This document shows positions 5,396 through 64,000 of a stretch of DNA of 64,000 nucleotides, piece after piece. Made by a program: the position numbers and the translations under genes. The notes under the pieces were generated by a model, which had not been told where the DNA came from, ran no database searches, and saw nothing but the letters and a program-made list of their open reading frames with translations. The DNA comes from Pristiophorus japonicus (lineage: Eukaryota). The number at the start of each line of letters is the position of its first letter. Position 1 is the first letter of the stretch. The stretch covers positions 54,994,001 through 55,058,000 of the forward strand of contig NC_091995.1 of assembly GCF_044704955.1 (NCBI RefSeq), in the 5' to 3' direction.

Positions 5396-5469
5396 TTTAG
5401 TTTCCTCTCTTATCACCTCATCTGTTTTATTAACATCTCCTGTTTGCTTATGTCCTGCCGCGGTCACCA

Positions 5470-6499: not shown

Positions 6500-6690
6500 A
6501 GGGCAAGAAGGGCCCCAGATCGACTCACATTGTAAATAGTTACACTATTGACTTTGGGGGGAGGGGGGGGGGAAATTGTTGTTATATATGTATACTTGTA
6601 GTTACTCTGTACAGCCACCAGAGGACTCATCACCTGGAGTCCCAAGGGATCCGATAATACCTGTGTTCCCAAGGGATTATGAGATCCCTT
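6500..6690 (+). mobile_element. Gypsy LTR-retrotransposon 3' fragment (pol C-terminus, PPT, start of 3' LTR); host of the provirus
   Basis: Encodes RARRAPDRLTL*, then ACTATTGACTTTGGG and a G-rich PPT, then TGTTATATATG. Homologous to the reverse complement of 22100-22260. Confidence 0.75.
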
Positions 6691-12067: not shown

Positions 12068-12260
12068 CTTTCACTTTGACCGACCCACCCTCACTCTCCC
12101 GATTCACAAACTGTTCTGAGGTCTTTTACCCGGTGACCGATGACTCGCTGCAGCAGAATATTGCCATTGGGTTAGTGGGCGGGGCGGAGCGCGGCCGGTC
12201 TTGCTGTGATTGGTGGCCCGGCGCTTGTTTGTTGCATTTCAGTCAGGAGCCCAGGAAGTG
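12068..12260 (+). promoter_or_regulatory. B2M: B2M proximal promoter: ISRE, S, X1/X2, Y boxes, GC box, second CCAAT, ETS site; CpG-rich, no clear TATA
   Basis: CTTTCACTTT 12068-12077. S-like CAAACT 12107-12112, then 16 nt to X1 CCCGGTGACCGATG 12129-12142. X2 TGACTCG 12141-12147. ATTGG 12166-12170. GGGCGGGGCGG about 12177-12187. ATTGG 12209-12213. CAGGAAGTG 12252-12260. Confidence 0.8.
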
Positions 12261-12338
12261 AGGAGCAGAAGGGATCGGAGCGGAGAGTGTGAAGCCGGAG
12301 CGGACCCTGAACTTGAGCCCGAGAGAGCTGCAGCCACC

Positions 12339-12387
12339 ATGCTGAAGATCGCGATCTTCACCTCGGTCCTGGCCCTGTGCCTGGCGA
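12339..12387 (+). CDS. B2M: Beta-2-microglobulin exon 1 (signal peptide MLKIAIFTSVLALCLA)
   Basis: Kozak GCCACCATG, hydrophobic leader, phase-1 donor A|GTAAGT matching the exon 2 phase. Confidence 0.88.
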
Positions 12388-12459
12388 GTAAGTGAGCTCA
12401 GTGTTTAAGGGGCCCGGGGTCAGCGCGGAGTTTGGGAAAGAATGTAAACCAGATACGAC

Positions 12460-13045
12460 CACAGTGCTCTTCCTCAGTCCCATTCCCCATCCACAGTGCC
12501 CTCTCCCTCAGTCCCATTACCCATCCACAGTGCCCTCTCCCTCAGTCCCATTACCCATCCACAGTGCCCTCTCCCTCAGTCCCATTACCCATCCACAGTG
12601 CCCTCTCCCTCAGTCCCATTACCCATCCACAGTGCCCTCTCCCTCAGTCCCATTACCCATCCACTGTGCCCTCTCCCTCAGTCCCATTACCCATCCACAG
12701 TGCCCTCTCCCTCAGTCCCATTACCCATCCACAGTGCCCTCTCCCTCAGTCCCATTACCCATCCACAGTGCCCTCTCCCTCAGTCCCATTACCCATCCAC
12801 TGTGCCCTCTCCCTCGGTACCATTCCCCAAGCACTGTGCCCTCTCTCAGTCCCATTCCCCATCCACAGTGCCCTCTCCCTCAGTCCCATTACCCATCCAC
12901 TGTGCCCTCTCCCTCGGTACCATTCCCCAAGCACTGTGCCCTCTCTCAGTCCCATTCCCCATCCACAGTGCCCTCTCCCTCAGTCCCATTCCCCAAGCAC
13001 TGTGCCCTCTCCCTCAGTCCCATTGCCCATCCACTGTGCTCTCCT
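12460..13045. repeat. 34-bp minisatellite in B2M intron 1
   Basis: CACAGTGCCCTCTCCCTCAGTCCCATTACCCATC, about 17 copies with variants. Confidence 0.95.
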
Positions 13046-13627
13046 TTAGACTCAATCCTTCACAGCATAACAGTAGAATGAGCCTTGACACAGTGTAGGG
13101 AGCAGTGAATGAAGGTCACTACGTTTATAGCGAACAGGAATGGTGGAGGACCCCATTACTTATTGAAGGGGGTGCACTGTGGAAGGCTGATGTTTGGACA
13201 ATACTTTATTGTCTCCAGATAATGTTCTGTTGAATTTATGAAGCCCCCATCCCCAGTACAGATTCCCCTGCCTGCTGATCGTAGCGACGGCGTAAGTGTG
13301 TTTGTGCAGTTGATGTGAGTTTGATGCAAACAGTGAACAGGGAAGCCATAGCCAAGGGGGTGGGGTTTGTGCTGTTACGACACAGTGACCAGAGTTCTCC
13401 CATGAGAATTGCGCATTTCTTTCACCAGAACATTTCATTATCTCCAAACTCCCCTTCACTTTGCTCCAGGTAACAGTTCAACCTTTGACTTTCGTCTTCT
13501 CGCACTGTTTATTTTGTTTCCAGTATCCTGTACTTTTTGCCACTTTCACACTGCTTTTTCACCCGTCTCTCTATCTTCTACTTTTGTTTCTGTTAAGTGT
13601 CTGTTGTCTCCATCATTGGGGCTCAGA

Positions 13628-13856
13628 CCCCAGTCAGTGTCGGATATCTCCCAGTCCCAGTGTTTGTGAGTTCCCAGTCAGTGTAGGATATCTCCCAGTC
13701 CCAGTGTCTGGGATATCCCAGTTGGTGTAGGATATCTCCCAGTCCTGGTGTTGGGATATCCCACTCAGTGTAGGATCCCAGTCTCGGTATCTGGGAGTTC
13801 CCAGTCAGTGTTGACTAGTTCCCAGTCCCAGAGTCTGGGAGTTCCCAGTCAGTGTT
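13628..13856. repeat. Degenerate CCCAGTC/GGATATCT minisatellite near the end of B2M intron 1
   Basis: Recurring CCCAGTCAGTGT and GGATATCTCCCAGTC. Confidence 0.75.
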
Positions 13857-13918
13857 GGTGATGGATTGGAATCAGTTGCTGTTAAATTACACTCACTCTG
13901 TCCCTCCTGTGTCTCTAG

Positions 13919-14191
13919 ATGCTCCACAAGTACATGTCTATACCCACACCCCCCCAAAGGAAGGTGAATCAAATGTTCTGCTGTGCCATGCCAAAGATTT
14001 CAGCCCACCCAACATCCAGCTGGAGCTGTTGGAGAATGGAATCATCATACCCAATGCCAACCAGTCTGACCTCTCCTTCGAGACAGACTGGAGCTTCAAG
14101 CTCACCACGTTTGTGCACTTTGTCCCCAAGAACAACGTGAAGTATGTCTGCAGGGTGCAACACAACGGCGACAGCAGAGAGTTTCAGCTGG
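13919..14191 (+). CDS. B2M: Beta-2-microglobulin exon 2 (C1-set Ig domain)
   Basis: APQVHVYTH...NVLLCHAKDFSPPNI...SDLSFETDWSF...YVCRVQH. Acceptor tctctag|, donor G|GTGAGT, 273 nt, phase 1-1. Confidence 0.97.
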
Positions 14192-14334
14192 GTGAGTAAT
14201 GTGTCTGTTCATCATGGATAATGTACATCAATGCACAGTGCTCCCTCTCTCACTCTCCCTCTGTGATACCAAACTCCATCCAATACATAATGTGGTAAAC
14301 ACAGACTCCTCCTCAACTGAACATGTGACAGTAA

Positions 14335-14562
14335 TCCTCCATTAGATTGCAGCCTGTAACTCACTGCAGGTTTCCATTATTCAGTATACACACCATCTGA
14401 TTCCCTCCACTGGATTCCAGCTTGTAACTCACTGCAGGTGTCCATTATTCAGTATATATGCCATTCTACGCCTCGATTATATAAACCATCTGATTCCCTC
14501 CACTAGATTGCAGCCTGTAACTCACTGCAGGTGTCCATTATTCAGTATATACACCATCTGAA
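14335..14562. repeat. Three copies of a unit of about 68 bp in B2M intron 2
   Basis: TGTAACTCACTGCAGGT.TCCATTATTCAGTATA x3. Confidence 0.8.
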
Positions 14563-14689
14563 CCCCTTGGAAAATTAAATGTATACCTTTACCCTTGAAT
14601 AAAGAGTATGTTTATTTGATATAACCTGCCCATGATCAGGTTAAACTGACCAAGTTCCTGTGGCTCAGTAGTTTCATGAAACCTTCAAG

Positions 14690-14997
14690 CTTTGAGCACA
14701 GCAAGATGCCACAAACAGTAATGTGATGGTGACCAGATGGGTGTTGGTTGAGGGCTAAATATTGGAGAGAATGCCCTTGGTCTTCGAAATAATGCTTTGG
14801 GATCTTTTAAGTCCACTTGAGAGGGTTCGGGGCTTCGGACTAATGTCTGATCCGAAAAATGGCACCTCCAACAAAGTAGCTCTCCCTCAGTACTGCACTC
14901 AAGTGTCAGCCTTGTTTCTGTGCTCCAGTCTCTGGAGTGGGGTTTGAATCCACAGCCATGTGACTGAGGCTAGAGTGCTACCCACTGAGCCTCGGCT
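14690..14997 (-). mobile_element. tRNA-derived Deu-domain SINE (SacSINE1-like), degraded
   Basis: Minus strand has A box GGCTCAGTGG, B box GGATTCAAACCC, then AGTGCAGTACTGAGGGAG...GGAGGTGCCATTTTTCGGATCAGAC resembling the Deu core. Confidence 0.7.
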
Positions 14998-15263
14998 AAC
15001 ATCTAAAATAATGTGCTGTGATACGTTGGCACTCTGGATAGAATCTCTGTACAGTGCTTGCGAAGGTGCTGACCTATACACCTAACTCATTTACCTTGGC
15101 AGGTTTCTTTCAGGGATAACATTTTTGGGATACAGGGACATAATGTGTAGTGTGCTTGGGAGGAACGTTGGATTTATGGTTCCCAAAGTTCACCACCACT
15201 GGGTCTTTCCTCACCTCCTGTCTGGTCACAGACTAATGACGTTTCTTTTTGTTTCTCCCACAG

Positions 15264-15274
15264 ACAGCTACTAG
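15264..15274 (+). CDS. B2M: Beta-2-microglobulin exon 3 coding part (D-S-Y-stop); exon extends to 15289
   Basis: Branch point CTAAT, long pyrimidine tract and cacag|ACAGCTACTAG, giving ...EFQLDSY*. Donor GAG|GTAAGC at 15290, like the short exon 3 of other B2M genes. Confidence 0.92.
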
Positions 15275-24900: not shown

Positions 24901-27681
24901 CAAGGAGATCCTTCTGCAACTGTATAGGGTATTGGTGAGGCCGCACCTGGAGCATTGCGTGCAGTTTTAGTCGCCTTACTTAAGGAAGGATATACTGGCT
25001 TTAGAGGGGGTACAGAGACGATTCACTAGGCTGATTCCGGAGATGAGGGGGTTACCTTATGATGATAGATTGAGTAGACTGGGTCTTTACTCGTTGGAGT
25101 TCGGAAGGATGAGGGGTGATCTTATAGAAACATTTAAAATAATGAAAGGGATAGACAAGATAGAGGCAGAGAGGTTGTTTCCACTGGTCGGGGAGACTAG
25201 AACTAGGGGGCACAGCCTCAAAATATGGGGAGCCAATTTAAAGCCGAGTTGAGAAGGAATTTCTTCTCCCAGAGGGTTGTGAATCTGTGGAATTCTCTGC
25301 TCAAGGAAGCAGTTGAGGCTAGCTCATTGAATGTATTCAAGTCACAGATAGATAGATTTTTAACTAATAAGGGAATTAAGGGTTACAGGGAGCGGGCGGG
25401 TAAGTGGAGCTGAGTCCACGGCCAGATCAGCCATGATCTTGTTGAATGGCGGAGCAGGCTCGAGGGGCTAGATGGCCTACTCCTGTTCCTAATTCTTATG
25501 TTCTTATGTCTGCCACGATTCTTCTCCCTAAGAACTTGACCTCTGGCGCCAGGAAAACACACTTCGAGCGTCTCAATCCAAGTCCCACGCGATCCAGCTG
25601 ACTTAGAACCTCTTCCAGGTTCTTCAAGTGTTCGATGGTGTCCCAACCTGTGACCAGTATGTTGCCCTGGACAACGGTGCGCGGAACCAACTTTAGCAGG
25701 CTCTCCATTTTCCTTTGGAAAATTGCCACGGCCGATCGAATCCCAAACGGGCATCTATTGTAAATGAACAGACCTTTGTACGTGTTGATGCAGGTGAGGC
25801 CTTTCGAAGATTCCGCCAGCTCTTGCATCATGGAGGTCAGGTCCAACTTGGTGAATGTCTTCCCTCCAGCCAGGGTCGCAAATAGGTCGTCTGCCTTGGG
25901 TAGCGGGTAGTAGTCCTCTAGCGAAAAACGGTTAATCGTTACTTTATAGTCCCCACAAATTCTGACTGTGCCGTCGCCTTTGAGAACTGCATCAATCGGA
26001 CTGGCCCACTCGTTGAACTCCACCAGCGCAATTATGCCTTCTCGCTGCAGCCTGTCCAGCTCAATTTCCATTTTCTCTTGCATCATATATGGCACCGTCC
26101 GTGTCTTGTGGTGGCTGGGTCATGTACCGGGAACCAAGTGGATCTGCACCTTCGCCCGAGAAACTTCCAATGCCTGGCTCGAACAACGATGGGAACTTGC
26201 TCAGAACCTGGGCACATGAGGCATCGTCGACGGATGAAAGCGCTCGGATGTCGTCCCAGTTCCAGCGGATTTTTCCCAGCCAGCTTCTGCCGAACAGTGT
26301 GGGGCCATCTCCTGGTACAATCCATAGTGGTAGTTCATGCACTGCTCCATCAGTGGAGACTTTTATTGCTGCGCTGCCAATAACAGGGATCAGCTCTTTA
26401 GTGTAAGTTCTTAGCTTGGTATGAATGGGGCTAAGCTTGGGCCTGTGTGCCTTGTTGCTCCACAGCCTGTCGAAGGCCTTTTTGCTCATGATAGACTGGA
26501 TACTGGAGTTCTGTTCAGTTCAACTTTTAACATGATCGGTGGACATTTCGTGGTGAAGGTTTGTACCCCGTACACTTCTGTCTCCTCGGTTCGAGTCTCT
26601 AGTTCAGCCTGATCCACCATGGATCGATCCTCCTCTGCAACGTGGTGATTTGCAGGGTTTGCAGCTCGTCTGCACATTCGATGGAGGTGTCCCATTGTTC
26701 CACAACCTTTGCACACATAGTGTTTGAAGCAGCATTGATGGGCTCGATGATCACCTCCACAGCGCCAACACGGTGTTAACTGCCTCGCATTAACGATTGG
26801 TGGCGGACTCTGGGTCATCTGAGGTCGTGCAGCTGCAGGCGTGTATGTTCTGCCATATGCATTCCTGCCTGAAAACCACGTTACTTTGTGTACAGTACTT
26901 GCCAAAACTTCTTTTTGCTACAAAATTTGTTTGGTGTTATCGCTGGTGGACATAAATGTCTGGGCTATAGTTATGGCTTTGCTCAGATTCGGTGTTTCAA
27001 CAGTCAATAGTTTGTGAAGGATAACCTCATGGTCAATGCCAAGCACAAAAAAGTCTCTCAGCATTTGCTCCAGGAATCCACCTAATTTGCAATGTGCTGC
27101 AAGGCGCCTTAGTTCGGCGACGTAGCTCGCCACTTCCTGGCCTTTAGACCGTTGACACGTGTAGAATCAATACCTTGCCATCAGAACGCTTGCCTTCGGA
27201 TTTAGATGCTCCCGGACCAGTGTACACAGTTCTTCATAGGATTTGGTTGTTGGTGTCACCAGAGCTAGAAAATTCTTCATGAGGCCATAGGTTGTTGCCC
27301 CACAGACGGGAAGGAGGATCGCCCTTCATTTGGCAGCATTCTCGTCCCCTTCTAGCTCGTTGGCCACGAAGTATTGGTCGAGTCGCTCCTCGAAGGCCTC
27401 CCAATTTCTCCAGGACGCCAACAGTTCTTTGCATTTTCGTGTGGTTGTTCGTTATTTCGTCGCCAGACGTTAGGCTCAGAACAAAGTGATGCAACTGAGT
27501 ATTGTAGACAATGAGTAAGTGTGACCTTAACTCCTTTATTTAAACTCCAGAGTGCGGGTACAGCATGGGAGGCCTGCTTATATACAGTGCTCCCAAGGGA
27601 TGCTGGGATCTCTTGGGACTCCAACAGGTAAGCCCTCTGGTGGCGGTATGATACAGGTTGCCTAGGGTTGCATACAAAACA
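21980..27681 (-). mobile_element. Full-length degraded Ty3/Gypsy LTR retrotransposon
   Basis: 214-bp LTRs at 21980-22193 and 27468-27681; TSD GAGAA; PBS TGGCGACGA (27465-27457); PPT beside 22194. gag CCHC, RT (VRICGDYK), RNase H (LACD) and integrase (HVDFAGP, SDNGP, NGQVER), with frameshifts. Confidence 0.95.
24236..25507 (+). mobile_element. 5'-truncated CR1 nested in the Gypsy pol
   Basis: LDFQKAFDKVPH, GVPQG, KFADDTK motifs; (TTCTTATG)2 tail. Gypsy RT/RH sequence resumes on both sides. Confidence 0.95.
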
Positions 27682-36965: not shown

Positions 36966-37749
36966 TTTGTTCCTGTTAACATCTGTCAAAGTGAGAGGCA
37001 GAGTTCAGATTGTGATGTTTGTGGATATGTTGTGCACAGGCGATCAGCCAAGTCTGGGATCGGGACAATATACTGAGACAGGATAGGATCTGTGTCATGC
37101 CTGCTGTTTTCAGTTGATGCTCATGTTTAACTGCCCGCTCCACTCCTCTCCTGCCTCAGTGATATTTATGGTTTTTTTTATTTGTTTGCTGCTCGGTTAT
37201 CTGCTACAGAGAGTCCCTGGGACTTTCCACCGCAGCACCGAGTGACCTGTGTACTGCTGGGGAGGGAGGAGCCTTGCTGCTTCTGGGAATTCCTGCCAAG
37301 TTCAACCACAGGACCAGCTCGTCACCACATACTGAGACCTCTCCTCAGCCCCTGTCCTCCTCCCTCTTAAACCTGCCGTCGTCAACCCTCTCCCTCAAAA
37401 TAAAACACCCTGTACTTGCAAACCACCGCCCCATCTCCAACCTCTCGGCCGAAATGGCTTCCTTCCGTGCTGTAAATTTCTATGATTCAATGATTCTCTT
37501 TCCTATCTCAAGTACTTCAACGTGTTGTTGACTCCCAGATCCGTGCCCATCTTTCCTGCAACTCCATTTTTTAACCTTTTCAATCAGGTTTCTGCCGTGA
37601 CATAGTATGAACCAGCCCATATCAAAGTCACAAATGACGCCTCATGTGACTATGACCAAGCTAATCTGCCACTCCTCACTTTCTCGACTTTGACACGGTT
37701 AACCACGCCATCCTCCACAAAGTATGGCTCAAGGCCAGAGTCTTTACTC

Positions 37750-39967: not shown

Positions 39968-40643
39968 CGACATAACTAAAACCGCCTATTTCCACCTCCG
40001 TAACATTACCCCTCTCCGCTCCTGCCTCAGCTCATCTGCTGCTGAAGACCTCATCCATGCCTTTGTTACCTCCAGACTTGACTACTCCAACACACTCCTG
40101 GCTGGCCTCCCACATTCTACCCTGCGTAAACTTGAGGTCATCCAAAACTCGGCAGCCAATGTCCGAACCCGCACCAAGTCCCGGTCACCCATTATCCCTG
40201 TGCTCACCGCCCTACATTGGCTCCCAGTTAAGCAGCACCTCGATTTCAAAATTCTCATCCTTGTTTACAAATCTCCTCCCTATCTCTGTAATCTTCTTCA
40301 GTCCCACAAATCCCCCCGCTCCAGAGATGTCTGCGCTCCTCTAATTCTGCCCTCTTGAGCATCCCAGATTTTAATCGTTCATCCATTGGCGGCCGTGCCT
40401 TCAGCTACTTGGGCCCCAAGCTGTGGAACTTCCTCCTTAAACCTTTCTGTCTCTCTACCTCTCTTTCCTTCTTCAAGATGCTCCTTAAAACCTACCTTTG
40501 ACCAAGCATTTGGTCATCTGCCATAATTTCTTATGTGGCTTGGTGTCAAATTTAATTGTTTTGTCTTATAGCATTGCTGTGAAGTGCCTTGGCACGTTTT
40601 ACTATGTAAGAGGCGCTATATGAATACAAGTTGTTGTTGTTGT
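39968..40643 (+). mobile_element. L2 LINE 3' end
   Basis: AYFHLRNI...LIHAFVTSRLDYSN...LHWLPV...FKIL; (GTT)n tail. Confidence 0.9.
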
Positions 40644-40822
40644 TGGAGTTGGGTGTGTATGTATGTGTGGTGGATGTGTTTGTGTGTGCGAGTATGTGAG
40701 AGTGAGGGAGGGATTGTGTATTTGTGCAGTGGTGTTTGACACGTTGATATTGTCACACAAGTAAGAGTCAGCTCTGAGCTGTCTCTTGGGCTGCCAGTTG
40801 GTTTATTATTTCTGAGAGCTAT

Positions 40823-40970
40823 TTCTGGGAAGCCGTGTGATGGAAAGTCCCTGAGCTGGGATTGTGTGAGCTTTCAGTTTCAGGGTAAACAGCACAGGGC
40901 ACTGTACCACCTCTTGCAGTCCAACCAACCAATGGAAATTGGACAGTCCGCAGCATCAGCAGTTACTGGG
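40823..40970. promoter_or_regulatory. Candidate distal immune enhancer: GAS, NF-kB, ISRE, inverted Y and X1/X2
   Basis: TTCTGGGAA 40823-40831; GGAAAGTCCC 40842-40851; CTTTCAGTTTC 40871-40881; CCAAT 40929-40933; minus-strand CCCAGTAACTGCTG 40970-40957. Confidence 0.65.
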
Positions 40971-41064
40971 GAAAACCCTGTCAACCACTGTCTGCTCAGC
41001 CCCACATTCCATCTGCTGGCCCAGTCACCCCCGGGGGCTAAACTAAGGCAGCACATCCATGTCG

Positions 41065-44000
41065 AGCCCTCTCCCTCCCTCTCCCATTCCATCTCCCTGT
41101 TCCTCTATCTCTCCCACTAACTTTCTCTCGCCCTCACTCTCTCTCTCTCGCCCAATTCCTCTCCCTTGCCCTTTCCCTCTCTCTCCCCATCACTTTCACC
41201 TGCTCCCTCTCCCTATCCCTCACCTACATCAGCTCCTTCTCCCTCCACTTAACCCTCACTTACATTAACTCCCTCGCCCTTTCACCTCTTTCCCTCACTC
41301 TCACCCTCTCCCTCATCCTCTACCTATCCCTCACCTATACCAACTCTCTCTCCCTCGCGCTTTCCCTCTCTCCCTCCTGCTCCCTCTACACACTCTCTCT
41401 CCCCCCCATTGAACCCCTCCCTTACTCTCCCCCTCTCCCTCACGATCCTTCTCCCCCTCATCCTCCCCCACTCTATCTCACTCGTTGCTTCCCTCTCTCC
41501 TTCTGTGCTCCCTTTCCCCCTCTCTCTCCCACTGACTGTCTCTCACCATTACCCTCACTGTCTCCCTCGCCTTTTCCCTCTCTCCTTCACTCACTCTGTC
41601 ATGTATGTACTTTTGGGATCACTAGCCACTAGATGGCATCACTGTTGGAGGCCATTGGGCTGCACTTATGTGTGTGCAGCCCAGGTATAAAAGGTCAGCC
41701 ATTTTGTATATTAGTCACTTTGGGCCTTAATAAAGCAGAGCCAAGATCATACCTCTTGGAGTTAAACAGTACTCAGTCGAACAGTTATTGCTTACACAAA
41801 ATTTGGCGACGAGGCAACAACAACCTTTGCATGTAAAATTGAGTACAATTGGATTGTTGGAGCGATTTGTGGAAGGAGAAGATTGGGCAGACTTTGTGAG
41901 CCGTTTGAGCCAGTTCTTCGAGGCCAACAAAATGGAGGAGGTCGGCGACGCAGATCGGCACCGGGCCGTGTTCCTCATAGCTTGCGGTCCAAAAATTTAT
42001 GGTCTGTTAAAGAATCTACTCCTGTCTGTGAGTCCAACAGAGAAGACGTATGAAGAATTGTGTACACTGGTACAGGACCACCTTCAGCCAGACGAAGGCA
42101 TCATCATCTCGAGATACAGATTTTACACGCATGTTCGCTCAGAGGGCCAGAATGCGGCGGAATTCGTTGCGGACCTGAGACGTCGAGCGGGACCGTGTTG
42201 GCAGACATGCTGCAGGACTTCTTTGTAATCGGCATCAACCACGAGATGATCCTGCGTAAACTACTGGCGGAGAGGTTGGACTTGAACAGGACCATCACAA
42301 TTGCTCAGTCATGTATGACAACGGATAGAAGTGTACAGCAGATATCAGTGAAAAATCGAAACTCGGCAAGTACTGTAAATATGATTGATTTGGTGTTCGG
42401 CAGAGCGGCACATGGCAGGGCCTACCCGACTGCGTACCCGAAACCTGTGGCTGCCCAAAGTCTGCCAGCGATTTCTCCGTGTTGGCGTTGTGGGGTAAAT
42501 CACCGGCACCAGCAGTGCCAATTTAAGCAAAATAGTTGCAAAGGCTGTCTGCGAGTGGGGCATCTCCAGCGCAAGTGTCCGCAGATGAGCAAGCGTATTG
42601 CCACACACCATGTGGAGGATAATGGTCAGACTAACGCGGATCCGGATACCCAATCTGAGATACTAGAGGAGAAAGAGTATGGACTGTACTCATTCCTACC
42701 TAAGAGCAAACCGATAATGATCAACGTGAAATTTAATGGAGTGCCGGTATCGATGGAACTGGACACGGGGGCGCGTCAATTGATAATGAGCCAGAGGGCA
42801 TTCAACAAGCTGTGGGATACTAAGGCTATGAGGCCCAGGCTGAGTCCAGTCAATGCCAAGTTGTGTACGTACACCAAAGAATTCATAACGGTGATTGGCA
42901 GTGCCACAATAAAAGTGTCGTGTGACGGTGCGGTTCACGAGTTACCGCTCTGGATTGTCCCAGGCAATGGTCCAACGCTGTTCGGCAGGAACTGGCTTGG
43001 AAAAAATCAGATGCGATTGGAACGACATCAAGGCTTTGTCGTCGGAGAAAGATACATGTGCCAAGTACTGAGCAAGTTCCCCTCGCTGTTCGAACCAGGC
43101 ACCGGCAACTTCACGGGAGCCAAGGTGCAGATCCACATGGACTTGGATGCAAGACCCGTCCATCATAAAGCTCGGGCAGTTCCGTATATGATGAGGGAGA
43201 AGGTCGAAATCGAACTGGACAGACTCCAGCGTGAAGGGATCATATCACCGGTTGAATTTAATGTATGGGCCAGCTCCATTGTTCCTGTGCTGAAAAGTGA
43301 TGGCACAGTCAGAATCTGTGGAGACTACAAGGCTACAATCAACAGGGTTTCGAAACAGGATCAGTACCCATTACCAAAGACTGATGACTTGTTTGCAACG
43401 CTAGCAGGGGGGAAGTCGTTCACCAAACTGGACTTGACGTCGGCCTACATGACACAGGAGCTGGTCGAGACATCGAAGACACTTACGTCACTAACACGCA
43501 TAAAGGACTATTTATTTATCACAGGTGCCCTTTTGGAATTCGCTCGGCTGCAGCAATATTTCAGAGGAACATGGAGAGTCTACTGAAGTCCGTTCCCAGA
43601 ACCGTCGTGTTCCAAGATGACATCCTGATCACAGGCTGTGACTCCGAGGAACATCTGCACAACCTGGAAGAGGTTCCACATCGTCTGGACAAAGTGGGAC
43701 TCAGACTGAAACGCTCGAAGTGCATCTTCATGGCACCAGAAGTCGAATTCCCGGGGAGGAAAATTGCTGCTGACGGCATCAGGCCCATGGACGTGAAAAC
43801 CAAAGCCTTCAAGAATGCACCCAAGCCACAGAATGTGACGGAGCTGCATTTGTTCCTGGGTCTACTCAACTACTTCGGTAACTTCCTACCTGAATTGAGC
43901 ACCTTATTAGAACCACTGCACATGTTGCTAAGAAAAGGCGATAACTGGGCGTGGGGTGCGTCTCAAGACAGAGCTTTTGAGAAAGCCACTAATCTGCTTT

Positions 44001-47000
44001 GCTCTAACAAGCTGCTGGTACATTATGACCCATGTAAATGTTTAGTATTGGCCTGTGATGCTTGGTCATAGGGAATTGGTTGTGTACTCCAACAAGCTAA
44101 TGAGTCGGGTAAACTTCAACCAGTCGCATATGCTTCAAAAAGTTTGTATAAAGCGGAAAGAGCCTACAGCATGGTAGAGAAAGAAGCACTAGCCTGTGTG
44201 TATGGGGTTAAAAAGATGCATCAGTACCTGTTCGGTCTTAGGTTTGAACTGGAGACAGATCACAAGTCACTCATTTCACTGTTCTCTGAAAACAAAGGTA
44301 TCAATACCAATGCTTCATTTCGCATCCAGAGGTGGGCGCTGACATTATCCGCTTATGATTATGTCATATGCCATAGACCTAGCACCGAGAATTGTGCCGA
44401 TGCTTTGAGCCGGTTGCCGTTGCCCACACCGGAGGTGGAACTGCCACAACCGGCGGACCTATTGTTAGTTATGGATGCTTTTGAGAGTGAAGGAACCCCT
44501 GTCACGGTTCAACAAGTTAAGACCTGGACCAGCCAGGGCCCGATTTTATCGGTGGTGAAGAGTTGCATCCTCAAAGGTGATTGGTCTGCCATACCCAAGC
44601 AAATGTGCGAGGAGACCAAACCTTACATTTGTCGCAAAGATGAACTGTCTATTCAGTTGGATTTTATACTGTGGGGCAATCGTGATGTTATGTCCAAGAA
44701 AGAGAGAGAGAAATTTGTATGTGAGCTACATAGCACACATACTGGCATTGTAATGATGAAATTCATCGCCAGGGTCTCATGTATGGTGGCCAGGAATTGA
44801 CTGTGAGCTGGAATCAAGCATGCATCAGTGCAACACTTGCATGCAGCTCAGCAAAGCACCAGTGGAATCGCCGCTGAGTCTGTGGTCGTGGCCATCCAAA
44901 CCATGGTCCAGGATCCACATAGATTTTGCAGGTCCCTTCCTGGGGAAGATGTTTTTAGTTGTGGTGGATGCATATTCGAAATGGATAGTGTATAATCATG
45001 TCATCCAGCACATCCACAGCTGCCATTGAAAATGGACTTTCAGTCCCTGACATGGCCATTGCCACTCCCACCAGGTCAGCCACCCAGCCACCAGTTACAA
45101 CAGGCTCGAAAACTCACCCAAGGCTGGAGTTGAACTGAACAGTCAATCCGGGAGGGTAAAACACCGGATCATCTCAATTTATAAACGACTGTGTTAATAT
45201 CTCAGTGTGTGCAGCCCAAATATAAAAGGTCAGCCATTTTGTATATTAGTCACTTTGTGCCTTAATAAAGCAGAGCCAAGGTCATACCTCTTGGAGTTAA
45301 ACAGTACTCAGTCTAACAGTTATTGCATACACAACACACTCCCTCTCTTCTCACTCTCCCAGCCCACCTTGCTCTCACCCTCTCTGTCACTTTCCCACTC
45401 TTTTTCGTCCTCTCCCTATCCCTCTCCCACGCCATCTTACTCGCCCCTTTTCCCCTCCCCCTCCCACTGACTCTCTCACCATCACTCTCTCCCTCTTCCT
45501 CACACTCTCCCTCCCTCTCTCTCTCTCTCTTTCACTCCCACTTCGTCTCTCTCCATCCTCTTGCCCTCTCCCCCTCTCACTCCCTCACCCACTCGCTTGC
45601 TTTTTCCCTCTCTCTCCCTCACCCACTCCCTCGCCCTTACTCTCTCTCTCCCTCACTCTTGGACTCTCCCTCTTACTTGCGATCTCCCACTCACTCTCCA
45701 TTTCCCACTCCTTTACTCATTCTCCCTCACTATCTCCTTCTCCTTCGTCCTCACTCTTGGCCTCTTCCTCTGCTTCCTTATCCACTCACTCTCTCTCTTT
45801 CACCATAGCCCTCTCCCTCAACCATTCCATGTCCCTCACTATTTCCCTCTCTCCCTCTCCAACCCCATCTCTCTCTTCCGTTCTCCCTCCCACTCACTCA
45901 CTCTCACTATCCTTCCTCTCCTGCTCCCTCTTCCTCTCCCTCACGCTCGCTCTCCCTGTTTCCCTCTCACTCACCATCACTTCCTCTCCCACTCCCTCAT
46001 TCTCCTCCTTTCCCTCGCCAATTCCCTTTCCCACTCCCTCTACCTTGCCCTCTCTCTCTTCCACTCCCTTCCTCATGCTCGCTCTCTCCCTCAGCCTCTC
46101 CCACTCCCTCTTCCTTGTGCTCTCCCTCCTTCTCCCTCACTCATTCCCATGCTCTTTCCCTTTCCCCCCACTCACCCACTTCCTCATTCTCCTTCATCCT
46201 CTCCATCTCACTCGCCCCTTCTCTCTCCCTCACACCATTGCTCACCCTTGCCCTCTCTCGCTCCCTCTCCCATGGCCGTTCCCACTCCCTCATACTATCT
46301 CTCCTTCTCCCTCACCCACTCCCATACTCTTTCCCTCTCTCCTCCACCCCTCCGTCCCCACTCAACCTCTCCCTCACTCTTCTTCTTGTCCTCTTTCCCG
46401 TGTTCTCCCATGTCCTCACCCACTCCATCTCACTCGCCCTTTCCCTCTCACCCCCTCTCCCTCCCACTGACTCTCTCACCATCATCCTCACTCTCTCTCT
46501 CTCTCTCCTGCTCCCTCAGTATCTCACATTCCTGCTCCCACTCCCCCTCTCTCTCCCCCGCTCCCTCACTCTCTCCCTTTCCCTCACCCTCACGTTCTCC
46601 CTCACCCTCACCCACGGCCTCTCCTTGTCCTTGCCACCTACCTTGCCCTCTCTCTCCCACTCCTTCTCCTACTTCACTCACTCCCACATCCTTTCCCTCT
46701 CTCCCCCCCACTCTCGCCCTCTCCCTCACACACTCCCTCTCCATTTCTCTTGCCCTCTGTCTCACTCCCATTTCCCTGTCCCTATCCTTCACTCTTTCCC
46801 ACTGCCTCGCTCTACCTCCCCCTCTCCCATTACCTGCGCTCTCTCCCATTCCCTCAACCTTTCTCCCTGTCCCCCTCTCCCTCCTTTTCTCTCTTTCTCC
46901 CTCCCTCACCCTCTCCCACTGCCCTTCCATCGCCCTTTCGCTCTCCCTCACCCTCCCTCACACTATCCCTATCCGTGCCCTTTCACTCTCTCTCTCCACC

Positions 47001-47640: not shown

Positions 47641-48239
47641 CTGGCCGAATAGCTTCTTTCTGTGCTGTAAGTGTCTATGATTCTATATTTGGGCCACTCC
47701 TGATCTACTCACTCAGGCATTGTTTGAAGACTCCGGCTTGTGCTGAGTGGTGTTGACTGTTGGTATCAGGGTTCCTGGGTTTGGAGAGAGAGTGTCAGAC
47801 AGGGTCCTGGCTCCAGACATCTCTTCCGCAATCCCAATGAACAAGGGCTAGTATGATTCCCAGGTGACAGAGCGGACAAATCAAGTTAGGGTACCAGCAA
47901 AAACTGACAACTCAGGAACAGGCCATCCCGTGCTCAGTAATCACTCTGTAATCGATGTGATACTTACACGTATGTGCATCTCACCTCACATGACAGCCCA
48001 TCACTTCCAATAGCAGTTTATGAAGGCCCAGGTGGAGAATCCAAATGTTCAAGGCAAACCAATGAGTGGGGAATCTCCAGCAACATGCCCACTGAGACAA
48101 CATACAAGTTGGAGATTAAGATGAGGCACAATGGTTCATTTTAAGCACATTTACTTTTTACAATGTTTACAGCGTTTTAATCAGTAAAACGAAGATAAAG
48201 TGGGCTAATTATATCCCTGACGATGTTTATCGGACAGAT

Positions 48240-51200
48240 TTACTGTAGTTTAATGACTGTATCCTCACTGGTGTGGTTTATATTTACTGTAATTTAGTGA
48301 CTGAATCCTCATTGGTGTGGTTTAGTGACTGGATCCTCATTGGTGTGGTTTATATTTACCGTAGTTTAGTGACTGGATCCTCACTGGTGTGGTTTATATT
48401 TACTGTAGTTTAATGACTGGATCCTCACTGGTGTGGTTTATATTTACTGAAGTTTAATTACTGTATCCACGCTGGTGTGGTTTATATTTACTGTAGTTGA
48501 GTGACTATTTCCTCACTGGTGTGGTTTATATTTACTGCAGTTTTGTGACCGGATCCTCACTGGTGTGGTTTATATTTACTGCAGTTTAGTGACTGGATCC
48601 TCACTGGTGTGGTTTATATTTACTGTAGTTTAGTGACTGGAGCCTCACTGGTGTGGTTTATATTTACTGTAGTTTAGTGACTGGATCCTCACTGGTGTGG
48701 TTTATATTCACTGTAGTTTAGTGACTGGATCCTCACTGGTGTGGTTTATATTTACTGTAGTTTAGTTACTGTATCCTCACTGGTGTGGTTTATATTTACT
48801 GTAGTTAGTGACTGAAGCCTCACTGGTGTGGTTTATTTTACTGCAGTTTAGTGACTGGATACTCACTGGTGTGGTTTATATTTACTGTAGTTTAGTGACT
48901 GGATACTCAATGGTGTGGTTTATATTTACTGTAGTTTAGTGACTGTAGCCTCACTGGTGTGGTTTATATTTACTGTAGTTTAGTGACTGTATCCTCACTG
49001 GTGTGGTTTATATTTTCTATAGTTTAGTGACTGGATCCTCACTGGGGTGGTTTATATTTACTGTAGTTTAGTGACTGGATCCTCACTGGTGTGGTTTATA
49101 TTTACTGTAGTTTAGTGACTGGATCCTCACTGGTGTGGTTTATATTTACTGTAGTTTAGTGACTGGAGCCTCACTGGTGTGGTTTATATTTACTGTAGTT
49201 TAGTGACTGGAGCCTCACTGGTGTGGTTTATATTTACTGTAGTTTAGTGACTGGAGCCTCACTGGTGTGGTTTATATTTACTGTAGTTTAGTGACTGGAT
49301 CCTCACTGGTGTGGTTTATATTTACTGTAGTTTAGTGACTGGATCCTCACTGGTGTGGATTATATTTACTGTAGTTTAGTGACTGGAGCCTCACTGGTGT
49401 GGTTTATATTTACTGTAGTTTAGTGACTGGAGCCTCACTGGTGTGGTTTATATTTACTGTAGTTTAGTGACTGGATCCTCACTGGTGTGGTTTATATTTA
49501 CTGTAGTTTAGTGACTGGATCCTCACTGGTGTGGTTTATATTTACTGTAGTTTAGTGACTGGATCCTCACTGGTGTGGTTTATATTTACTGTAGTTTAGT
49601 GACTGGAGCCTCACTGGTGTGGTTTATATTTACTATAGTTTAGTAACTGGAGCCTCACTGGTGTGGTTTATATTTACTGTAGTTTAGTGACTGGATCCTC
49701 ACTGGTGTGGTTTATATTTACTGTAGTTTAGTGACGGGATCCTTACTGGTGTGGTTTATATTTATTGTAGTTTAGTGACTGTATCCTCACTGGTGTGGTT
49801 TATATTTACCATAGTTTAGTGACCGGATCCTCACTGGTGCGAGTTATATTTACTGTAGTTCAGTGACTGGATCCTCACTGGTGTGGTTCATATTTACTGT
49901 AGTTTAGTGACTGTATCCTCACTGGTGTGGTTTACATTTACTGAAGTTTAATTACTGTATCCACGCTGGTGAGGTTTATATTTACTGTAATTTAGTGACT
50001 ATTTCCTCACTGGTGTGGTTTATATTTACTGTAGTTCAGTGACTGTATCCTCACTGGTGTGGTTTATATTTACTGTAGTTTAGTGACTGGATCCTCACTG
50101 GTGTGGTTTATATTCACTGTAGTTTAGTGACTGGATCCTCACTGGTGTGGTTTATATTTACTGTAGTTTAGTTACTGTATCCTCACTGGTGTGGTTTATA
50201 TTTACTGTAGTTAGTGACTGAAGCCTCACTGGTGTGGTTTATTTTACTGCAGTTTAGTGACTGGATACTCACTGGTGTGGTTTATATTTACTGTAGTTTA
50301 GTGACTGGATACTCAATGGTGTGGTTTATATTTACTGTAGTTTAGTGACTGTAGCCTCACTGGTGTGGTTTATATTTACTGTAGTTTAGTGACTGTATCC
50401 TCACTGGTGTGGTTTATATTTTCTATAGTTTAGTGACTGGATCCTCACTGGGGTGGTTTATATTTACTGTAGTTTAGTGACTGGATCCTCACTGGTGTGG
50501 TTTATATTTACTGTAGTTTAGTGACTGGATCCTCACTGGTGTGGTTTATATTTACTGTAGTTTAGTGACTGGAGCCTCACTGGTGTGGTTTATATTTACT
50601 GTAGTTTAGTGACTGGAGCCTCACTGGTGTGGTTTATATTTACTGTAGTTTAGTGACTGGAGCCTCACTGGTGTGGTTTATATTTACTGTAGTTTAGTGA
50701 CTGGATCCTCACTGGTGTGGTTTATATTTACTGTAGTTTAGTGACTGGATCCTCACTGGTGTGGATTATATTTACTGTAGTTTAGTGACTGGAGCCTCAC
50801 TGGTGTGGTTTATATTTACTGTAGTTTAGTGACTGGAGCCTCACTGGTGTGGTTTATATTTACTGTAGTTTAGTGACTGGATCCTCACTGGTGTGGTTTA
50901 TATTTACTGTAGTTTAGTGACTGGATCCTCACTGGTGTGGTTTATATTTACTGTAGTTTAGTGACTGGATCCTCACTGGTGTGGTTTATATTTACTGTAG
51001 TTTAGTGACTGGAGCCTCACTGGTGTGGTTTATATTTACTATAGTTTAGTAACTGGAGCCTCACTGGTGTGGTTTATATTTACTGTAGTTTAGTGACTGG
51101 ATCCTCACTGGTGTGGTTTATATTTACTGTAGTTTAGTGACGGGATCCTTACTGGTGTGGTTTATATTTATTGTAGTTTAGTGACTGTATCCTCACTGGT

Positions 51201-54200
51201 GTGGTTTATATTTACCATAGTTTAGTGACCGGATCCTCACTGGTGCGAGTTATATTTACTGTAGTTCAGTGACTGGATCCTCACTGGTGTGGTTCATATT
51301 TACTGTAGTTTAGTGACTGTATCCTCACTGGTGTGGTTTACATTTACTGAAGTTTAATTACTGTATCCACGCTGGTGAGGTTTATATTTACTGTAATTTA
51401 GTGACTATTTCCTCACTGGTGTGGTTTATATTTACTGTAGTTCAGTGACTGTATCCTCACTGGTGTGGTTTATATTTACTGTAGTTTCGTGACTGGATCC
51501 TCACTGGTGTGGTTTATATTTACTGTAATTTAGTGACTATTTACTCACTGGTGTGGTTTATATTTACTGTAGTTCAGTGACTGTGTCCTCACTGGTGTGG
51601 TTTATATTTACTGTAGTTTAGTGACTGTATCCTCACTGGTGTGGTTTATATTTACTGTAGTTTAGTGACTGGATCCTCACTGGTGTGGTTTATATTTACT
51701 GTAGTTTAGTGATTGGATCCTCACTGGTGTGGTTTATATTTACTGTAGTTTAGTGATTGTATCCTCACTGGTGTGGTTTATATTTACTGTAGTTTAGTGA
51801 CTGTATCCTCACTGGTGTGGTTTATATTTACTGTAGTTTAGTGACTGGAGCCTCACTGGTGTGGTTTATATTTACTGTAGTTTAGTGACTGGAGCCTCAC
51901 TGGTGTGGTTTATATTTACTGTAGTTTAGTGACTGGATCCTCACTGGTGTGGTTTATATTTACTGTAGTTTAGTGACTGGATCCTCACTGGTGTGGTTTA
52001 TATTTACTGTAGTTTAGTGACTGGAGCCTCACTGGTGTGGTTTATATTTACTGTAGTTTAGTGACTGGAGCCTCACTGGTGTGGTTTATATTTACTGTAG
52101 TTTAGTGACTGGATCCTCACTGGTGTGGTTTATATTTACTGTAGTTTAGTGACTGGATCCTCACTGGTGTGGTTTATATTTACTGTAGTTTAGTGACTGG
52201 ATCCTCACTGGTGTGGTTTATATTTACTGTAGTTTAGTGACTGGAGCCTCACTGGTGTGGTTTATATTTACTGTAGTTTAGTGACTGGAGCCTCACTGGT
52301 GTGGTTTATATTTACTGTAGTTTAGTGACTGGAACCTCACTGGTGTGGTTTATATTTACTGTAGTTTAGTGACTGTATCCTCACTGGTGTGGTTTACATT
52401 TACTGAAGTTTAATTACTGTATCCATGCTGGTGTGGTTTATATTTACTGTAGTTGAGTGACTATTTCCTCACTGGTGTGGTTTATATTTACTATAGTTTA
52501 GTGACTGGATCCTCACTGGTGCGATTTATATTTACTGTAGTTCAGTGACTGGATCCTCACTGGGGTGGTTTATATTTACTGTAGTTTAGTGACTGGATCC
52601 TCACTGGTGTGGTTTATATTTACTGCAGTTTTGTGACCGGATTCTCACTGGTGTGGTTTATATTTACTGCAGTTTAGTGACAGTATCCTCACTGGTGTGG
52701 TTTATATTTACTGCAGTTTTGTGACTGGATCCTCACCGGTGTGGTTTATATTTACTGTAGTTTAGTGACAGTATCCTCACTGGTGTGGTTTATATTTACA
52801 GTAGTTTAGTGACTGGATTCTCACTCGTGTGCTTTATATTTACTTTAGTTTAGCGACTGGATCTTCACAGGTGTGGTTTATATTCACTGTAGTTTAATGA
52901 CTGTATCCACGCTGGTGTGGTTTATATTTACTGTAATTTAGAGACTATTTCCTCACTGGTGTGGTTTATATTTACTGTAGTTCAGTGACTGTATCCTCAC
53001 TGGTGTGGTTTATATTTACTGTAGTTTCGTGACTGGATCCTCACTGGTGTGGATTATATTTACTGTAATTTAGTGACTATTTACTCACAGGTGTGGTTTA
53101 TATTTACTGTAGTTCAGTGACTGTGTCCTCACTGGTGTGGTTTATATTTACTGTAGTTTAGTGACTGGATCCTCAATGGTGTGGTTTATATTTACTGTAG
53201 TTTAGTGACTGGATCCTCACTGGTGTGGTTTATATTTACTGTAGTTTAGTGATTGTATCCTCACTGGTGTGGTTTATATTTACTGTAGTTTAGTGATTGT
53301 ATCCTCACTGGTGTGGTTTATATTTACTGTAGTTTAGTGATTGTATCCTCACAGGTGTGGTTTATATTTACTGTAGTTTAGTGACTGTACCCTCACTGGT
53401 GTGGTTTATATTTACTGTAGTTTAGTGACTGGATCCTCACTGGTGTGGTTTATATTTACTGTAGTTTAGTGACTGGATCCTCACTGGTGTGGTTTATATT
53501 TACTGTAGTTTAGTGATTGTATCCTCACTGGTGTGGTTTATATTTACTGTAGTTTCGTGATTGCATCCTGACTGGTGTGGTTTATATTTACTATAGTTTA
53601 GTGACTGGATCCTCACTGGTGTGGTTTATATTTACTGTAGTTTAGTGACTGGATCCTCACTGGTGTGGTTTACATTTACTGTAGTTGAGTGAACAGATCC
53701 TCACTGGTGTGGTTTATATTTACTGTTGTTTAGTGACTAGATCCTCACTGGTGTGGTTGAAATTAACTGTAGTTTAGTGACTGGATCCTCACTGGTGTGG
53801 TTTATATTTAGTGCAGTTTGTGGCTGGATCCTCACTGGTGTGGTTTATATTTACTGTAATTTTGTGACTGGATCCTCACTGGTGTGGTTTATATTTACTG
53901 TAGTTTAGTGACTGGATCCTCACTGCTGTGGTTTATATTTACTGTAGTTTAGTGACTGGATCCTCACTGGTATGGTTTATATTTAATGTAGTTTAGTGAC
54001 TGGTTCCTCACTGGGGTGGTTTATATTTACTGTAGTTTAGTGACTGTATCCTCACTGGTGTGGTTTATATTTACTGTAGTTTAGTGACTGGATCCTCACT
54101 GGTGTGGTTTATATTTACTGTAGTTTTGTGACTGGATCCTCACTGGTGTGGTTTATATTTACTGTAGTTTAGTGACTGGATCCTCACTGCTGTGGTTTAT

Positions 54201-57200
54201 ATTTACTGTAGTTTAGTGACTGGATCCTCACTGGTATGGTTTATATTTAATGTAGTTTAGTGACTGGTTCCTCACTGGTGTGGTTTATATTTACTGTAGT
54301 TCATGTGACTGTATCCTCACTGGTATGGTTTACATTTACCGTAGTTTAGTGACTGGATCCTCACTGGTGTGATTTATATTTACTGTAGTTTAGTGACTGG
54401 ATCCTCACTGGTGTGGTATATATTTACTGTAGTTTAGTGCCGAGATCCTCACTGGTATGGTTGATATTTACTGTAGTTTAGTGACTGGATCTTCACTGGT
54501 GCGATTTATATTTACTGTCGTTTAGTGACTATATCCTCACTGGTGTGGTTTATATTTACTGTAGTGTAGTGACTATATCCTCACTGGTGTGGTTTACATT
54601 TACTGTAGTTGAGTGACTAGATCCGCACTGGTGTGGTTGAAATTAACTGTAGTTTAGTGACTGGATCCTCACTGGTGTTGTTGAAATTAACTGTAGTTTA
54701 GTGACTGGATCCTCACTGGTGTGGTTTACATTTACTGTAGTTGAGTGAACAGATCCTCACTGGTGTGGTTTATATTTACTGTAGTTTAGTGACTGGATCC
54801 ACACTGGTGTGGTTTATATTTACTGTAGTCTAGTGACTGTATCCTTACTGGTGTGGTTTATATTTACTGTAGTTTAGTGCCTGCATCCTCACTGGTGTGG
54901 TTTATATTTACTGTCGTTTAGTGACTATATCCTCACTGGTGTGGTTTATATTTACTGCAGTGTAGTGACTGGATCCTCACTGGTGTGGTTTACATTTACT
55001 GTAGTTGAGTGAACAGATCCTCACTGGTGTGGTTTATCTTTACTGTTGTTTAGTGACTAGATCCTCACTGGTGTGGTTGAAATTAACTGTAGTTTAGTGA
55101 CTGGATCCTCACTGGTGTGGTTTATATTTAGTGCAGTTTGTGGCTGGATCCTCACTGGTGTGGTTTATATTTACTGTAGTTTTGTGACTGGATCCTCACT
55201 GGTGTGGTTTATATTTACTGTAGTTTAGTGACTGGATCCTCACTGCTGTGGTTTATATTTACTGTAGTTTAGTGACTGGATCCTCACTGGTATGGTTTAT
55301 ATTTAATGTAGTTTAGTGACTGGTTCCTCACTGGGGTGGTTTATATTTACTGTAGTTTAGTGACTGTATCCTCACTGGTGTGGTTTATATTTACTGTAGT
55401 TTAGTGACTGGATCCTCACTGGTGTGGTTTATATTTACTGTAGTTTAGTGACTGGATCCTCACTGGTGTGGTTTATATTTACTGTAGTTTAGTGACTGGA
55501 TCCTCACTGCTGTGGTTTATATTTACTGTAGTTTAGTGACTGGATCCTCACTGGTATGGTTTATATTTAATGTAGTTTAGTGACTGGTTCCTCACTGGTG
55601 TGATTTATATTTACTGTAGTTCATGTGACTGTATCCTCACTGGTGTGGTTTACATTTACCGTAGTTTAGTGACTGGATCCTCACTGGTGTGATTTATATT
55701 TACTGTAGTTTAGTGACTGGATCCTCACTGGTGTGGTATATATTTACTGTAGTTTAGTGCCTAGATCCTCACTGGTATGGTTGATATTTACTGTAGTTTA
55801 GTGACTATATCCTCACTGGTGTGGTTTATATTTACTGTAGTGTAGTGACTGGATCCTCACTGGTGTGGTTTATATTTACTGTCGTTTAGTGACTATATCC
55901 TCACTGGTGTGGTTTATATTCACTGCAGTGTAGTGACTGGATCCTCACTGGTGTGGTTTACATTTACTGTAGTTGAGTGAACAGATCCTCACTGGTGTGG
56001 TTTATATTTACTGTTGTTTAGTGACTAGATCCTCACTGGTGTGGTTAAAATTAACTGTAGTTTAGTGACTGGATCCTCACTGGTGTGGTTTATATTTAGT
56101 GCAGTTTGTGGCTGGATCCTCACTGGTGTGGTTTATATTTACTGTAATTTTGTGACTGGATCCTCACTGGTGTGGTTTATATTTACTGTAGTTTAGTGAC
56201 TGGATCCTCACTGCTGTGGTTTATATTTACTGTAGTTTAGTGACTGGATCCTCACTGGTATGGTTTATATTTAATGTAGTTTAGTGACTGGATCCTCACT
56301 GCTGTGGTTTATATTTACTGTAGTTTAGTGACTGGATCCTCACTGGTATGGTTTATATTTAATGTAGTTTAGTGACTGGTTCCTCACTGGTGTGGTTTAT
56401 ATTTACTGTAGTTCATGTGACTGTATCCTCACTGGTGTGGTTTACATTTACCGTAGTTTAGTGACTGGATCCTCACTGGTGTGATTTATATTTACTGTAG
56501 TTTAGTGACTGGATCCTCACTGGTGTGGTATATATTTACTGTAGTTTAGTGCCTAGATCCTCACTGGTATGGTTGATATTTACTGTAGTTTAGTGACTGG
56601 ATCTTCACTGGTGTGATTTATATTTACTGTCGTTTAGTGACTATATCCTCACTGGTGTGGTTTATATTTACTGTAGTGTAGTGACTATATCCTCACTGGT
56701 GTGGTTTACATTTACTGTAGTTTAGTGACTAGATCCGCACTGGTGTGGTTGAAATTAACTGTAGTTTAGTGACTGGATCCTCACTGGTGTTGTTGAAATT
56801 AACTGTAGTTTAGTGACTGGATCCTCACTGGTGTGGTTTACATTTACTGTAGTTGAGTGAACAGATCCTCACTGGTGTGGTTTATATTTACTGTAGTTTA
56901 GTGACTGGATCCACACTGGTGTGGTTTATATTTACTGTAGTCTAGTGACTGTATCCTTACTGGTGTGGTTTATATTTACTGTAGTTTAGTGCCTGCATCC
57001 TCACTGGTGTGGTTTATATTTACTGTCGTTTAGTGACTATATCCTCACTGGTGTGGTTTATATTTACTGTAGTGTAGTGACTGGATCCTCACTGGTGTGG
57101 TTTATATTTACTGTCGTTTAGTGACTATATCCTCACTGGTGTGGTTTATATTCACTGCAGTGTAGTGACTGGATCCTCACTGGTGTGGTTTACATTTACT

Positions 57201-63200: not shown

Positions 63201-64000
63201 GGATCCTCACTGGTGTGCTTTATATTCACTGTAGTTTAATGGCTGGATCCTCACTGGTGTGCTTTATATTTACTGTAGTTTAGTGACTAGATCCTCAATG
63301 GTGTGGTTTATATTTACTATAGTTTAGTGACTGGATCCTCACTGGGGTGGTTTATATTTACTGTAGTTTAGTGACTGTATCCTCACTGGTGTGGTTTATA
63401 TTTACTGTAGTTTAGTGACTGTATCCTCACTGGTGTGGTTTATATTTACTGTAGTTTAGTGACTGGATCTTCACTGGTGTGGTTTATATTTACTGTAGTT
63501 TAGTGACTGGATCCTCACTGGTGTGGTTTATATTTACTGTCGATTATTGACGAGATCCTCACTGGTGTGGTTTATATTTACTGTAGTTTAGTGACTGGAT
63601 CCTCACTGGGATGGTTTATATTTACTGTAGTTTAGTGACTGGATCCTCACTGGTGTGGTTTATATTTACTGTAGTTTCGTGACTGAATGCCCACTGGTGT
63701 GGTTTATATTTACTGTCGTTTAGTGACTGTATCCTCATTGGTGTGGTTTATATTTAATGTAGTTTAGTGACTGGATCCTCACTGGTGTGGTTTATATTTA
63801 CTGTAGTTTAGTGACTGGAGCCTGACTGGTGTGGTTTATATTTACTGTAGTTTAGTGACTGGATCCTCACTGGTGTGGTTTATATTTACTGTAGTTTCGT
63901 GACTGGATCCTCATTGGTGTGGTTTATATTTGCTGTAGTTTAGTGACTGGATCCTCACTGGTGTGGTTTATATTTACTGATGTTTCGTGACTGGATCCTC
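48240..64000. repeat. 44-bp satellite array (about 355 monomers, runs off the window) with higher-order repeats
   Basis: Consensus TTTAGTGACTGGATCCTCACTGGTGTGGTTTATATTTACTGTAG, containing a BamHI site. Confidence 0.98.

Follow-up and report, generated by a model that had tools for sequence, protein, structure and literature searches.

The 64,000-nucleotide stretch of Pristiophorus japonicus DNA that we analysed (the window) carries the gene for beta-2-microglobulin (B2M), whose exons splice into a 110-aa product identical to the beta-2-microglobulin-like protein of this species (P0001). A probable last exon at 16537-16780, with an acceptor near 16536 and an AATAAA near 16667, would make the gene 4.4 kb long, as in white shark and catshark; the same segment also overlaps a promoter-like GC box and three CCAAT boxes. 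The B2M promoter is of the class I type, with an IRF element, S, X1, X2 and Y boxes in this order. Compared by eye with the mouse modules printed as primers in PMC4374748, its X1X2 agrees with H2-K at 13 of 19 positions and with H2-Eb at 10 of 19, its S box agrees with mouse S at 4 of 6, and its spacings (16 nt from S to X, 25 nt from X2 to Y) are both those of H2-K.

Repeats make up most of the window outside B2M. About 6 kb upstream of the gene, an LTR-type retroelement occupies the minus strand of 1-6500 with frames for integrase and RNase H and an envelope-like frame of 485 aa that shows a weak Ig-domain match. The 31.5 kb from 16790 to 48315 are 29% unmasked and about 70% masked as repeat, with transposable element (TE) domains in several of the unmasked pieces. 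Two related, degenerate Gypsy-like LTR elements lie there in opposite orientation (~41600-45334 and ~21980-27500, 67-71% identical in pol); the first has LTR segments that are 95% identical, and the second is broken by a CR1-like LINE. The end of the window, 48316-64000, is a satellite with a 44-bp unit repeated at least 356 times, whose higher-order periods are near 1406/1409, 968 and 2288 bp; it sits in the expected interval between B2M and BRD2.

On the 3′ side of B2M, about 28.5 kb from its start codon, lies the 336-bp island that concerns us here (Table 1). It is bordered by a LINE and TG-rich tract on one side and by a CT-rich tract and then the LTR retrotransposon at ~41600-45334, with Pfam RT, RNase H and protease domains, on the other. 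An earlier note had called this DNA non-repetitive, which holds within the window, where no copy of 40641-41065 was found elsewhere in the first 48.4 kb. Along the plus strand the island carries GAS, kB and ISRE and then an X-Y module in inverted orientation, and motif scans placed the GAS, kB, ISRE and minus-strand X1, X2-like and Y elements just where that note had read them. The kB decamer GGGACTTTCC occurs twice in the 64-kb window, with 0.14 copies expected. From the start of X2 to ATTGG the island measures 25 nt, equal to the B2M promoter (12141 to 12166) as had been claimed, and the S position is indeed as poor as described. A pyrimidine tract precedes X1 at 40971-40975. The X2 box is outside one mismatch of both the CRE and the AP-1 consensus, and the full palindromic RFX consensus has no match anywhere in the window. 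A loosened X1 pattern was not used as evidence because it had been shaped after both sites were known.

Table 1. Features of the B2M locus and of the islands 3′ of it (positions in the window)
Feature	Position	Strand	Remark
B2M promoter	12068..12170	+	presumed target of the island
B2M promoter boxes	IRF-E 12068-12076; S-like 12107-12112; X1 12129-12140; X2 12141-12147; Y 12166-12170	+	
B2M coding exons	12339-12387, 13919-14191, from 15264 (span 12339..15274)	+	spliced translation; Pfam C1-set E 7e-17
Second single-copy island	36967..37446	+	exact kB 37219-37228, GAS 37281-37289
Single-copy island, 336 bp	40729..41064		unmasked after self-BLAST, TRF and low-complexity masking
Second, imperfect GAS-like site	40810-40818	+	one mismatch to TTCNNNGAA; direct repeat, 13 bp upstream of GAS
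GAS / STAT consensus site TTCTGGGAA	40823-40831	+	
NF-kB site GGGACTTTCC	40842-40851	-	
ISRE / IRF element	40871-40881	-	
Y box ATTGG	40929-40933	-	full NF-Y consensus AACCAATGG at 40927; 9/10 to B2M promoter Y decamer
X2-like box TGATGCT	40952-40958	-	directly 3′ of X1; 7/7 to mouse H2-Eb X2 by eye (PMC4374748 primers)
X1 box	40959-40970	-	perfect RGYAAC RFX half-site (40962-40967); 8/12 to H2-Eb X1 by eye
One-mismatch kB-like site	40969-40978	+	minus strand is the pyrimidine tract 5′ of X1
S-box position, GACAGT	40987-40992	-	16 nt before X1; 2/6 to either mouse S box by eye, not recognisable as S
Third island	47687..48237	+	CCAAT 48057, kB 48069-48078, RFX half-site 48079 (all within 48057-48084)

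Set by eye against the same mouse primers, the island X1X2 agrees with H2-Eb at 15 of 19 positions and with H2-K at 12 of 19, and its 25-nt spacing and CCATTGG context are those of H2-K, the H2-Eb spacing being 24. Judged from these comparisons the module is a hybrid, with a class-II-beta-like X1X2, a class-I-like Y and spacing and no S box, and such a hybrid favours RFX/NF-Y/CIITA over NLRC5 as its putative readers. In PMC4374748, the S box decides NLRC5 use and is essential for NLRC5, which was at no intergenic MHC enhancer in mouse; since the class I S box is missing here, CIITA is the likelier co-activator. The island may still work like a distal S-Y enhancer, because some CIITA targets are also without an evident S box according to PMC2278383, where S-Y modules are said typically to have a pyrimidine tract in front of X1. 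For the RAB4B module, mutation of S is reported to have cost about 40% of activity, and the reversed module to have kept its reporter activity. Most CIITA-bound XY sites in mammals are reported to regulate no gene.

In the 48,315 bp of non-satellite sequence the island is the only place where GAS, kB and ISRE fall together, at any span from 60 to 400 bp. When the observed site counts were placed at random (300,000 trials for each of two lengths), the probability per window was 0.004-0.006 for the triple within 60 bp and 5e-5 to 1e-4 for the triple and X-Y within 150 bp, a test that is partly post hoc since the motif classes were named beforehand by a reader who had seen the site. We quote this count-conditioned null because an order-3 Markov null (676 simulations) under-counted ISRE cores (2.8 vs 10 observed) and over-counted kB (17 vs 10 observed). 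Dinucleotide shuffles of the island never held all four elements (0 of 20,000). When the X1X2 (19 nt) and Y (10 nt) of the B2M promoter were scored at their fixed spacing over about 96,500 positions, the island reached 21/29, the best in 48 kb, the runner-up having 17/29. The two modules align without gaps, agreeing in the boxes and differing in the 13-nt spacer, a pattern described for conserved XY boxes in PMC4381081. The X match alone is unremarkable (35 sites at 12/19 and 4 at 13/19 in 48 kb), and in the LINE beside the island, at 40180-40220, an X-like 13/19 and an ATTGG occur at a spacing 1 nt shorter, which we read as a chance pair. When a 15-nt segment taken from the mouse H2-Eb primer was compared with the 64 kb, a match with two or fewer mismatches, also the best one, occurred at 40951-40965 and nowhere else; 0.18 such matches were expected anywhere in 64 kb, and 16 of 100 shuffles had one.

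Two further islands bear kB sites. The one at 37.2 kb holds the only other copy of GGGACTTTCC in the window (at 37219), 62 bp from a GAS that is identical to that of the index island and overlaps a one-mismatch kB; it is a possible second module of the same enhancer cluster. It also contains two RUNX cores, and the 3.3 kb that separate it from the index island are mostly repeat. The third island is a weaker candidate module; its minus-strand acceptor at 48092 and donors at 47989-47967 may mark an antisense exon, as at the sawfish BRD2-B2M locus. Three of the four kB-consensus sites of the 31.5-kb interval fall in the three islands (P 0.003 if the full interval is the background and 0.04 if it is unmasked DNA, calculated post hoc with the index island excluded). 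A locus control region is a cluster of hypersensitive sites that gives position-independent, copy-number-dependent expression, and of this the three kB-bearing islands are suggestive only. These two islands, and BRD2 as a target, are absent from the earlier note.

We consider it somewhat more probable than otherwise that the island is a gene-less, cytokine-inducible distal enhancer of the shark MHC that would loop to B2M; its target is probably B2M and possibly BRD2. RFX on X1, a CREB/ATF-type factor on X2 and NF-Y on Y, in promoter-like phase, would together hold the site open as a platform and could recruit a co-activator, CIITA more likely than NLRC5. STAT at the GAS, NF-kB, and IRF or ISGF3 at the ISRE, 50-110 bp away, would confer inducibility by interferon and TNF/TLR, and the complex would loop to the nearest promoter with the same module, that of B2M, probably acting together with the islands at 37.2 and 48.1 kb. 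That the factors bind, that the site is active and that it loops to this target is carried over here from mammalian work. This reading is supported by the single GAS+kB+ISRE triple, the best match to the B2M promoter module and the H2-Eb match, by mammalian distal S-Y modules that bind RFX/CIITA and the activity of the reversed RAB4B module, and by the placing of three of four kB sites in islands. Against it stand the absent S box, the poor CRE at X2, the common X matches and the pair at 40180, as well as the mammalian CIITA-bound XY sites that regulate nothing and the chance that BRD2 is as close as B2M. The distal B2M/MHC enhancer that the earlier note proposed thus fits anatomy, statistics and mammalian precedent, with function and target as candidates. 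Its further idea that the island supplies an input absent from the promoter is only partly true: 11950-12345 contains no GAS and no kB even when one mismatch is allowed, but a 44-bp minisatellite of intron 1 (13710-13846), just before exon 2, has four kB-consensus matches, which count against the enhancer reading.

The same enhancer could instead act mainly on BRD2 or on farther class II or class Ib genes, which we regard as unlikely. The first coding gene beyond the 3′ end of B2M is BRD2 in the three annotated elasmobranchs, where it has the same orientation as B2M and lies 68.5 kb (white shark), 86.5 kb (catshark) or 31.6 kb (sawfish) away. The interval between the two genes contains no annotated MHC gene in these three species and one uncharacterised antisense locus in sawfish (PMC10751288). 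For P. japonicus we infer the same position, as BRD2 is outside the window. A BRD2 or class II target would suit the class-II-beta-like X box, and IFN-gamma-induced CIITA binding is reported to be associated with BRD2 in human monocytes. However, no promoter seen is nearer than that of B2M, which has the same Y context and 25-nt spacing as the island, BRD2 lies beyond the window, and in the three species at least ~0.5 Mb separates class II genes from B2M.

Rather less probable is that the island is a promoter, either of a non-coding transcript toward B2M or, as a relic, of a lost class II-type gene that faced BRD2 head-to-head, the arrangement that DMA has in lobe-finned fish and tetrapods. 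Its X-to-Y polarity points away from the expected BRD2, as does the DMA S-X-Y module of a bat, ~17 kb from BRD2, and in both lungfish and bat DMA is head-to-head with BRD2; polarity alone, however, is a coin toss. The sawfish antisense locus across the interval and an AT-rich tract ~120 bp 3′ of Y would also agree with a promoter. Against this, the minus strand has no ATG from Y to the island edge and no splice signals in the island, and no remnant of an MHC domain occurs in the scanned ORFs. Pfam was run on all 263 stop-to-stop ORFs of at least 30 aa that overlap selected non-repeated segments, and it recovered B2M exon 2, our positive control, and above the curated cut-off no other host-gene domain, a LINE endonuclease being the only other such hit. 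The longest island ORF has no homologue at E<=1, a second has two weak matches of many short stretches (E 2e-4 and 5e-4) that we read as low-complexity noise, and the other island frames were checked with Pfam only. This agrees with the earlier remark that no coding exon is visible nearby. Rfam was negative for structured RNA at gathering thresholds (1-48,400), with three sub-threshold matches, all in the TG-rich tract outside the island. A possible micro-exon of 31 nt lies on the plus strand at 40730-40760, about 60 bp from the GAS; it has a good donor-like site at 40761 and a weak acceptor that failed the polypyrimidine filter, and was treated as probable chance.

With no exon, TATA box or CpG island, a hidden antigen-presentation gene at the island is unlikely, very short or non-coding exons being what could still be there. 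The earlier note had offered the promoter of such an unannotated gene as its alternative; it is disfavoured by the empty ORFs, by the lack of a TATA box or GC box in the island, by a CpG o/e of 0.21, and by the synteny, with BRD2 next after B2M in 3/3 annotated elasmobranchs. The low CpG o/e (the B2M promoter has 0.72), the missing TATA and GC boxes and the lack of homologues in Pfam, Rfam and protein searches make the island enhancer-like more than promoter-like. As for a DMA relic, reedfish has a psmb9-like gene in tandem upstream of brd2a, instead of a class II gene, and cartilaginous fish have no DM; both argue against it and leave capture of the module as a promoter to speculation.

LTRs can carry ISRE, GAS and kB sites, and the island might be a TE fragment, for example a solo LTR, that happens to hold immune motifs, functional or not. 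We think this improbable. The extent of masking in the interval, the TE domains in more of its unmasked pieces and a minus-strand AATAAA after the motif cluster would suit such an origin; against it, the island occurs once in the window, does not resemble the LTRs found there and carries no terminal repeats at its ends, and a phased MHC-type X-Y module beside B2M would then be a coincidence. Nor does it look like a duplicate, as blastn found no similarity to the B2M promoter or to the island at 37 kb. A chance assembly of short motifs without function is very improbable: although the motif classes were picked when the site was already known, individual motifs occur often (13 GAS, 10 kB and 10 ISRE cores in 48 kb) and one X/ATTGG chance pair exists at 40180, the joint probability of about 1e-4 per window, the shuffles and the independent H2-Eb match speak against it.

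[quoted passage not shown] The island resembles them in its gene-distal X1-X2-Y in promoter-like phase, in the pyrimidine tract before X1, in the class-II-beta-like X and in lying inside the MHC; X1 with its tract, X2, and the order and spacing of Y are all found, and S is not. It differs from them also in its class-I-like Y context and 25-nt spacing, in its place 3′ of B2M, in being fused to GAS, kB and ISRE (class II promoters are said to have neither kB nor ISRE), and in being known from sequence, with RFX/CIITA binding putative. We therefore call it a variant and not a member of that class, as it has no S box and adds GAS, kB and ISRE. With class I and B2M promoters, built as enhancer A, ISRE and SXY (mouse H2-K, PMC4374748), it shares the plus-strand order of kB, ISRE and module, the ISRE orientation of the shark B2M promoter IRF element, and the CCATTGG context and 25-nt spacing of H2-K. 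It is unlike them in that X-Y is reversed relative to kB-ISRE, so that in module polarity kB and ISRE come 3′ of Y and are not followed by a co-oriented SXY and gene, that the NLRC5-type S is missing, that a GAS is added and that no gene was found after it. Provided that B2M and BRD2 have the same order here, the island shares with the DMA promoter of bat and lungfish an X-Y module that lies upstream of BRD2 and faces away from it; this likeness is positional only, and sharks have no DMA. Distal S-Y enhancers and kB-ISRE-SXY cassettes are already established in mammals, and the kind of mechanism is not new. Among the matches listed for shark, elasmobranch or cartilaginous-fish work on promoters, enhancers and B2M/BRD2, no title concerned a shark MHC cis-element, which is weak evidence as few subscription journals were covered (further sources: PMC5437515, PMC10210626, PMC7922096, PMC6523485, PMC3837245, PMC4219347).

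As a doubtful speculation, an RFX/NF-Y module that belongs to no gene and is combined with interferon and NF-kB sites may have stood upstream of BRD2, facing away from it, since the jawed-vertebrate ancestor. It would serve in sharks as a long-range enhancer of the MHC-resident B2M, and in the lobe-finned lineage DMA, once placed head-to-head with BRD2, would have captured it as its promoter. If this were true, the mixture of class I and class II traits would have survived from an early stage of the MHC enhanceosome site, and the lasting linkage of B2M and BRD2 in elasmobranchs would be easier to understand; an X-Y module of the same polarity would be expected between B2M and BRD2 in other sharks and rays, and in reedfish between psmb9 and brd2a, where there is no gene. 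Returning to the distal enhancer that we favour, the island offers a mutable test object of 150 bp on the question of whether shark CIITA or NLRC5 reads a module with a class-II-like X, a class-I-like Y and no S. If functional, it would explain in terms of gene regulation why B2M and BRD2 have stayed linked in the elasmobranch MHC, and long-range MHC control by RFX/NF-Y modules would predate the split between cartilaginous and bony vertebrates.
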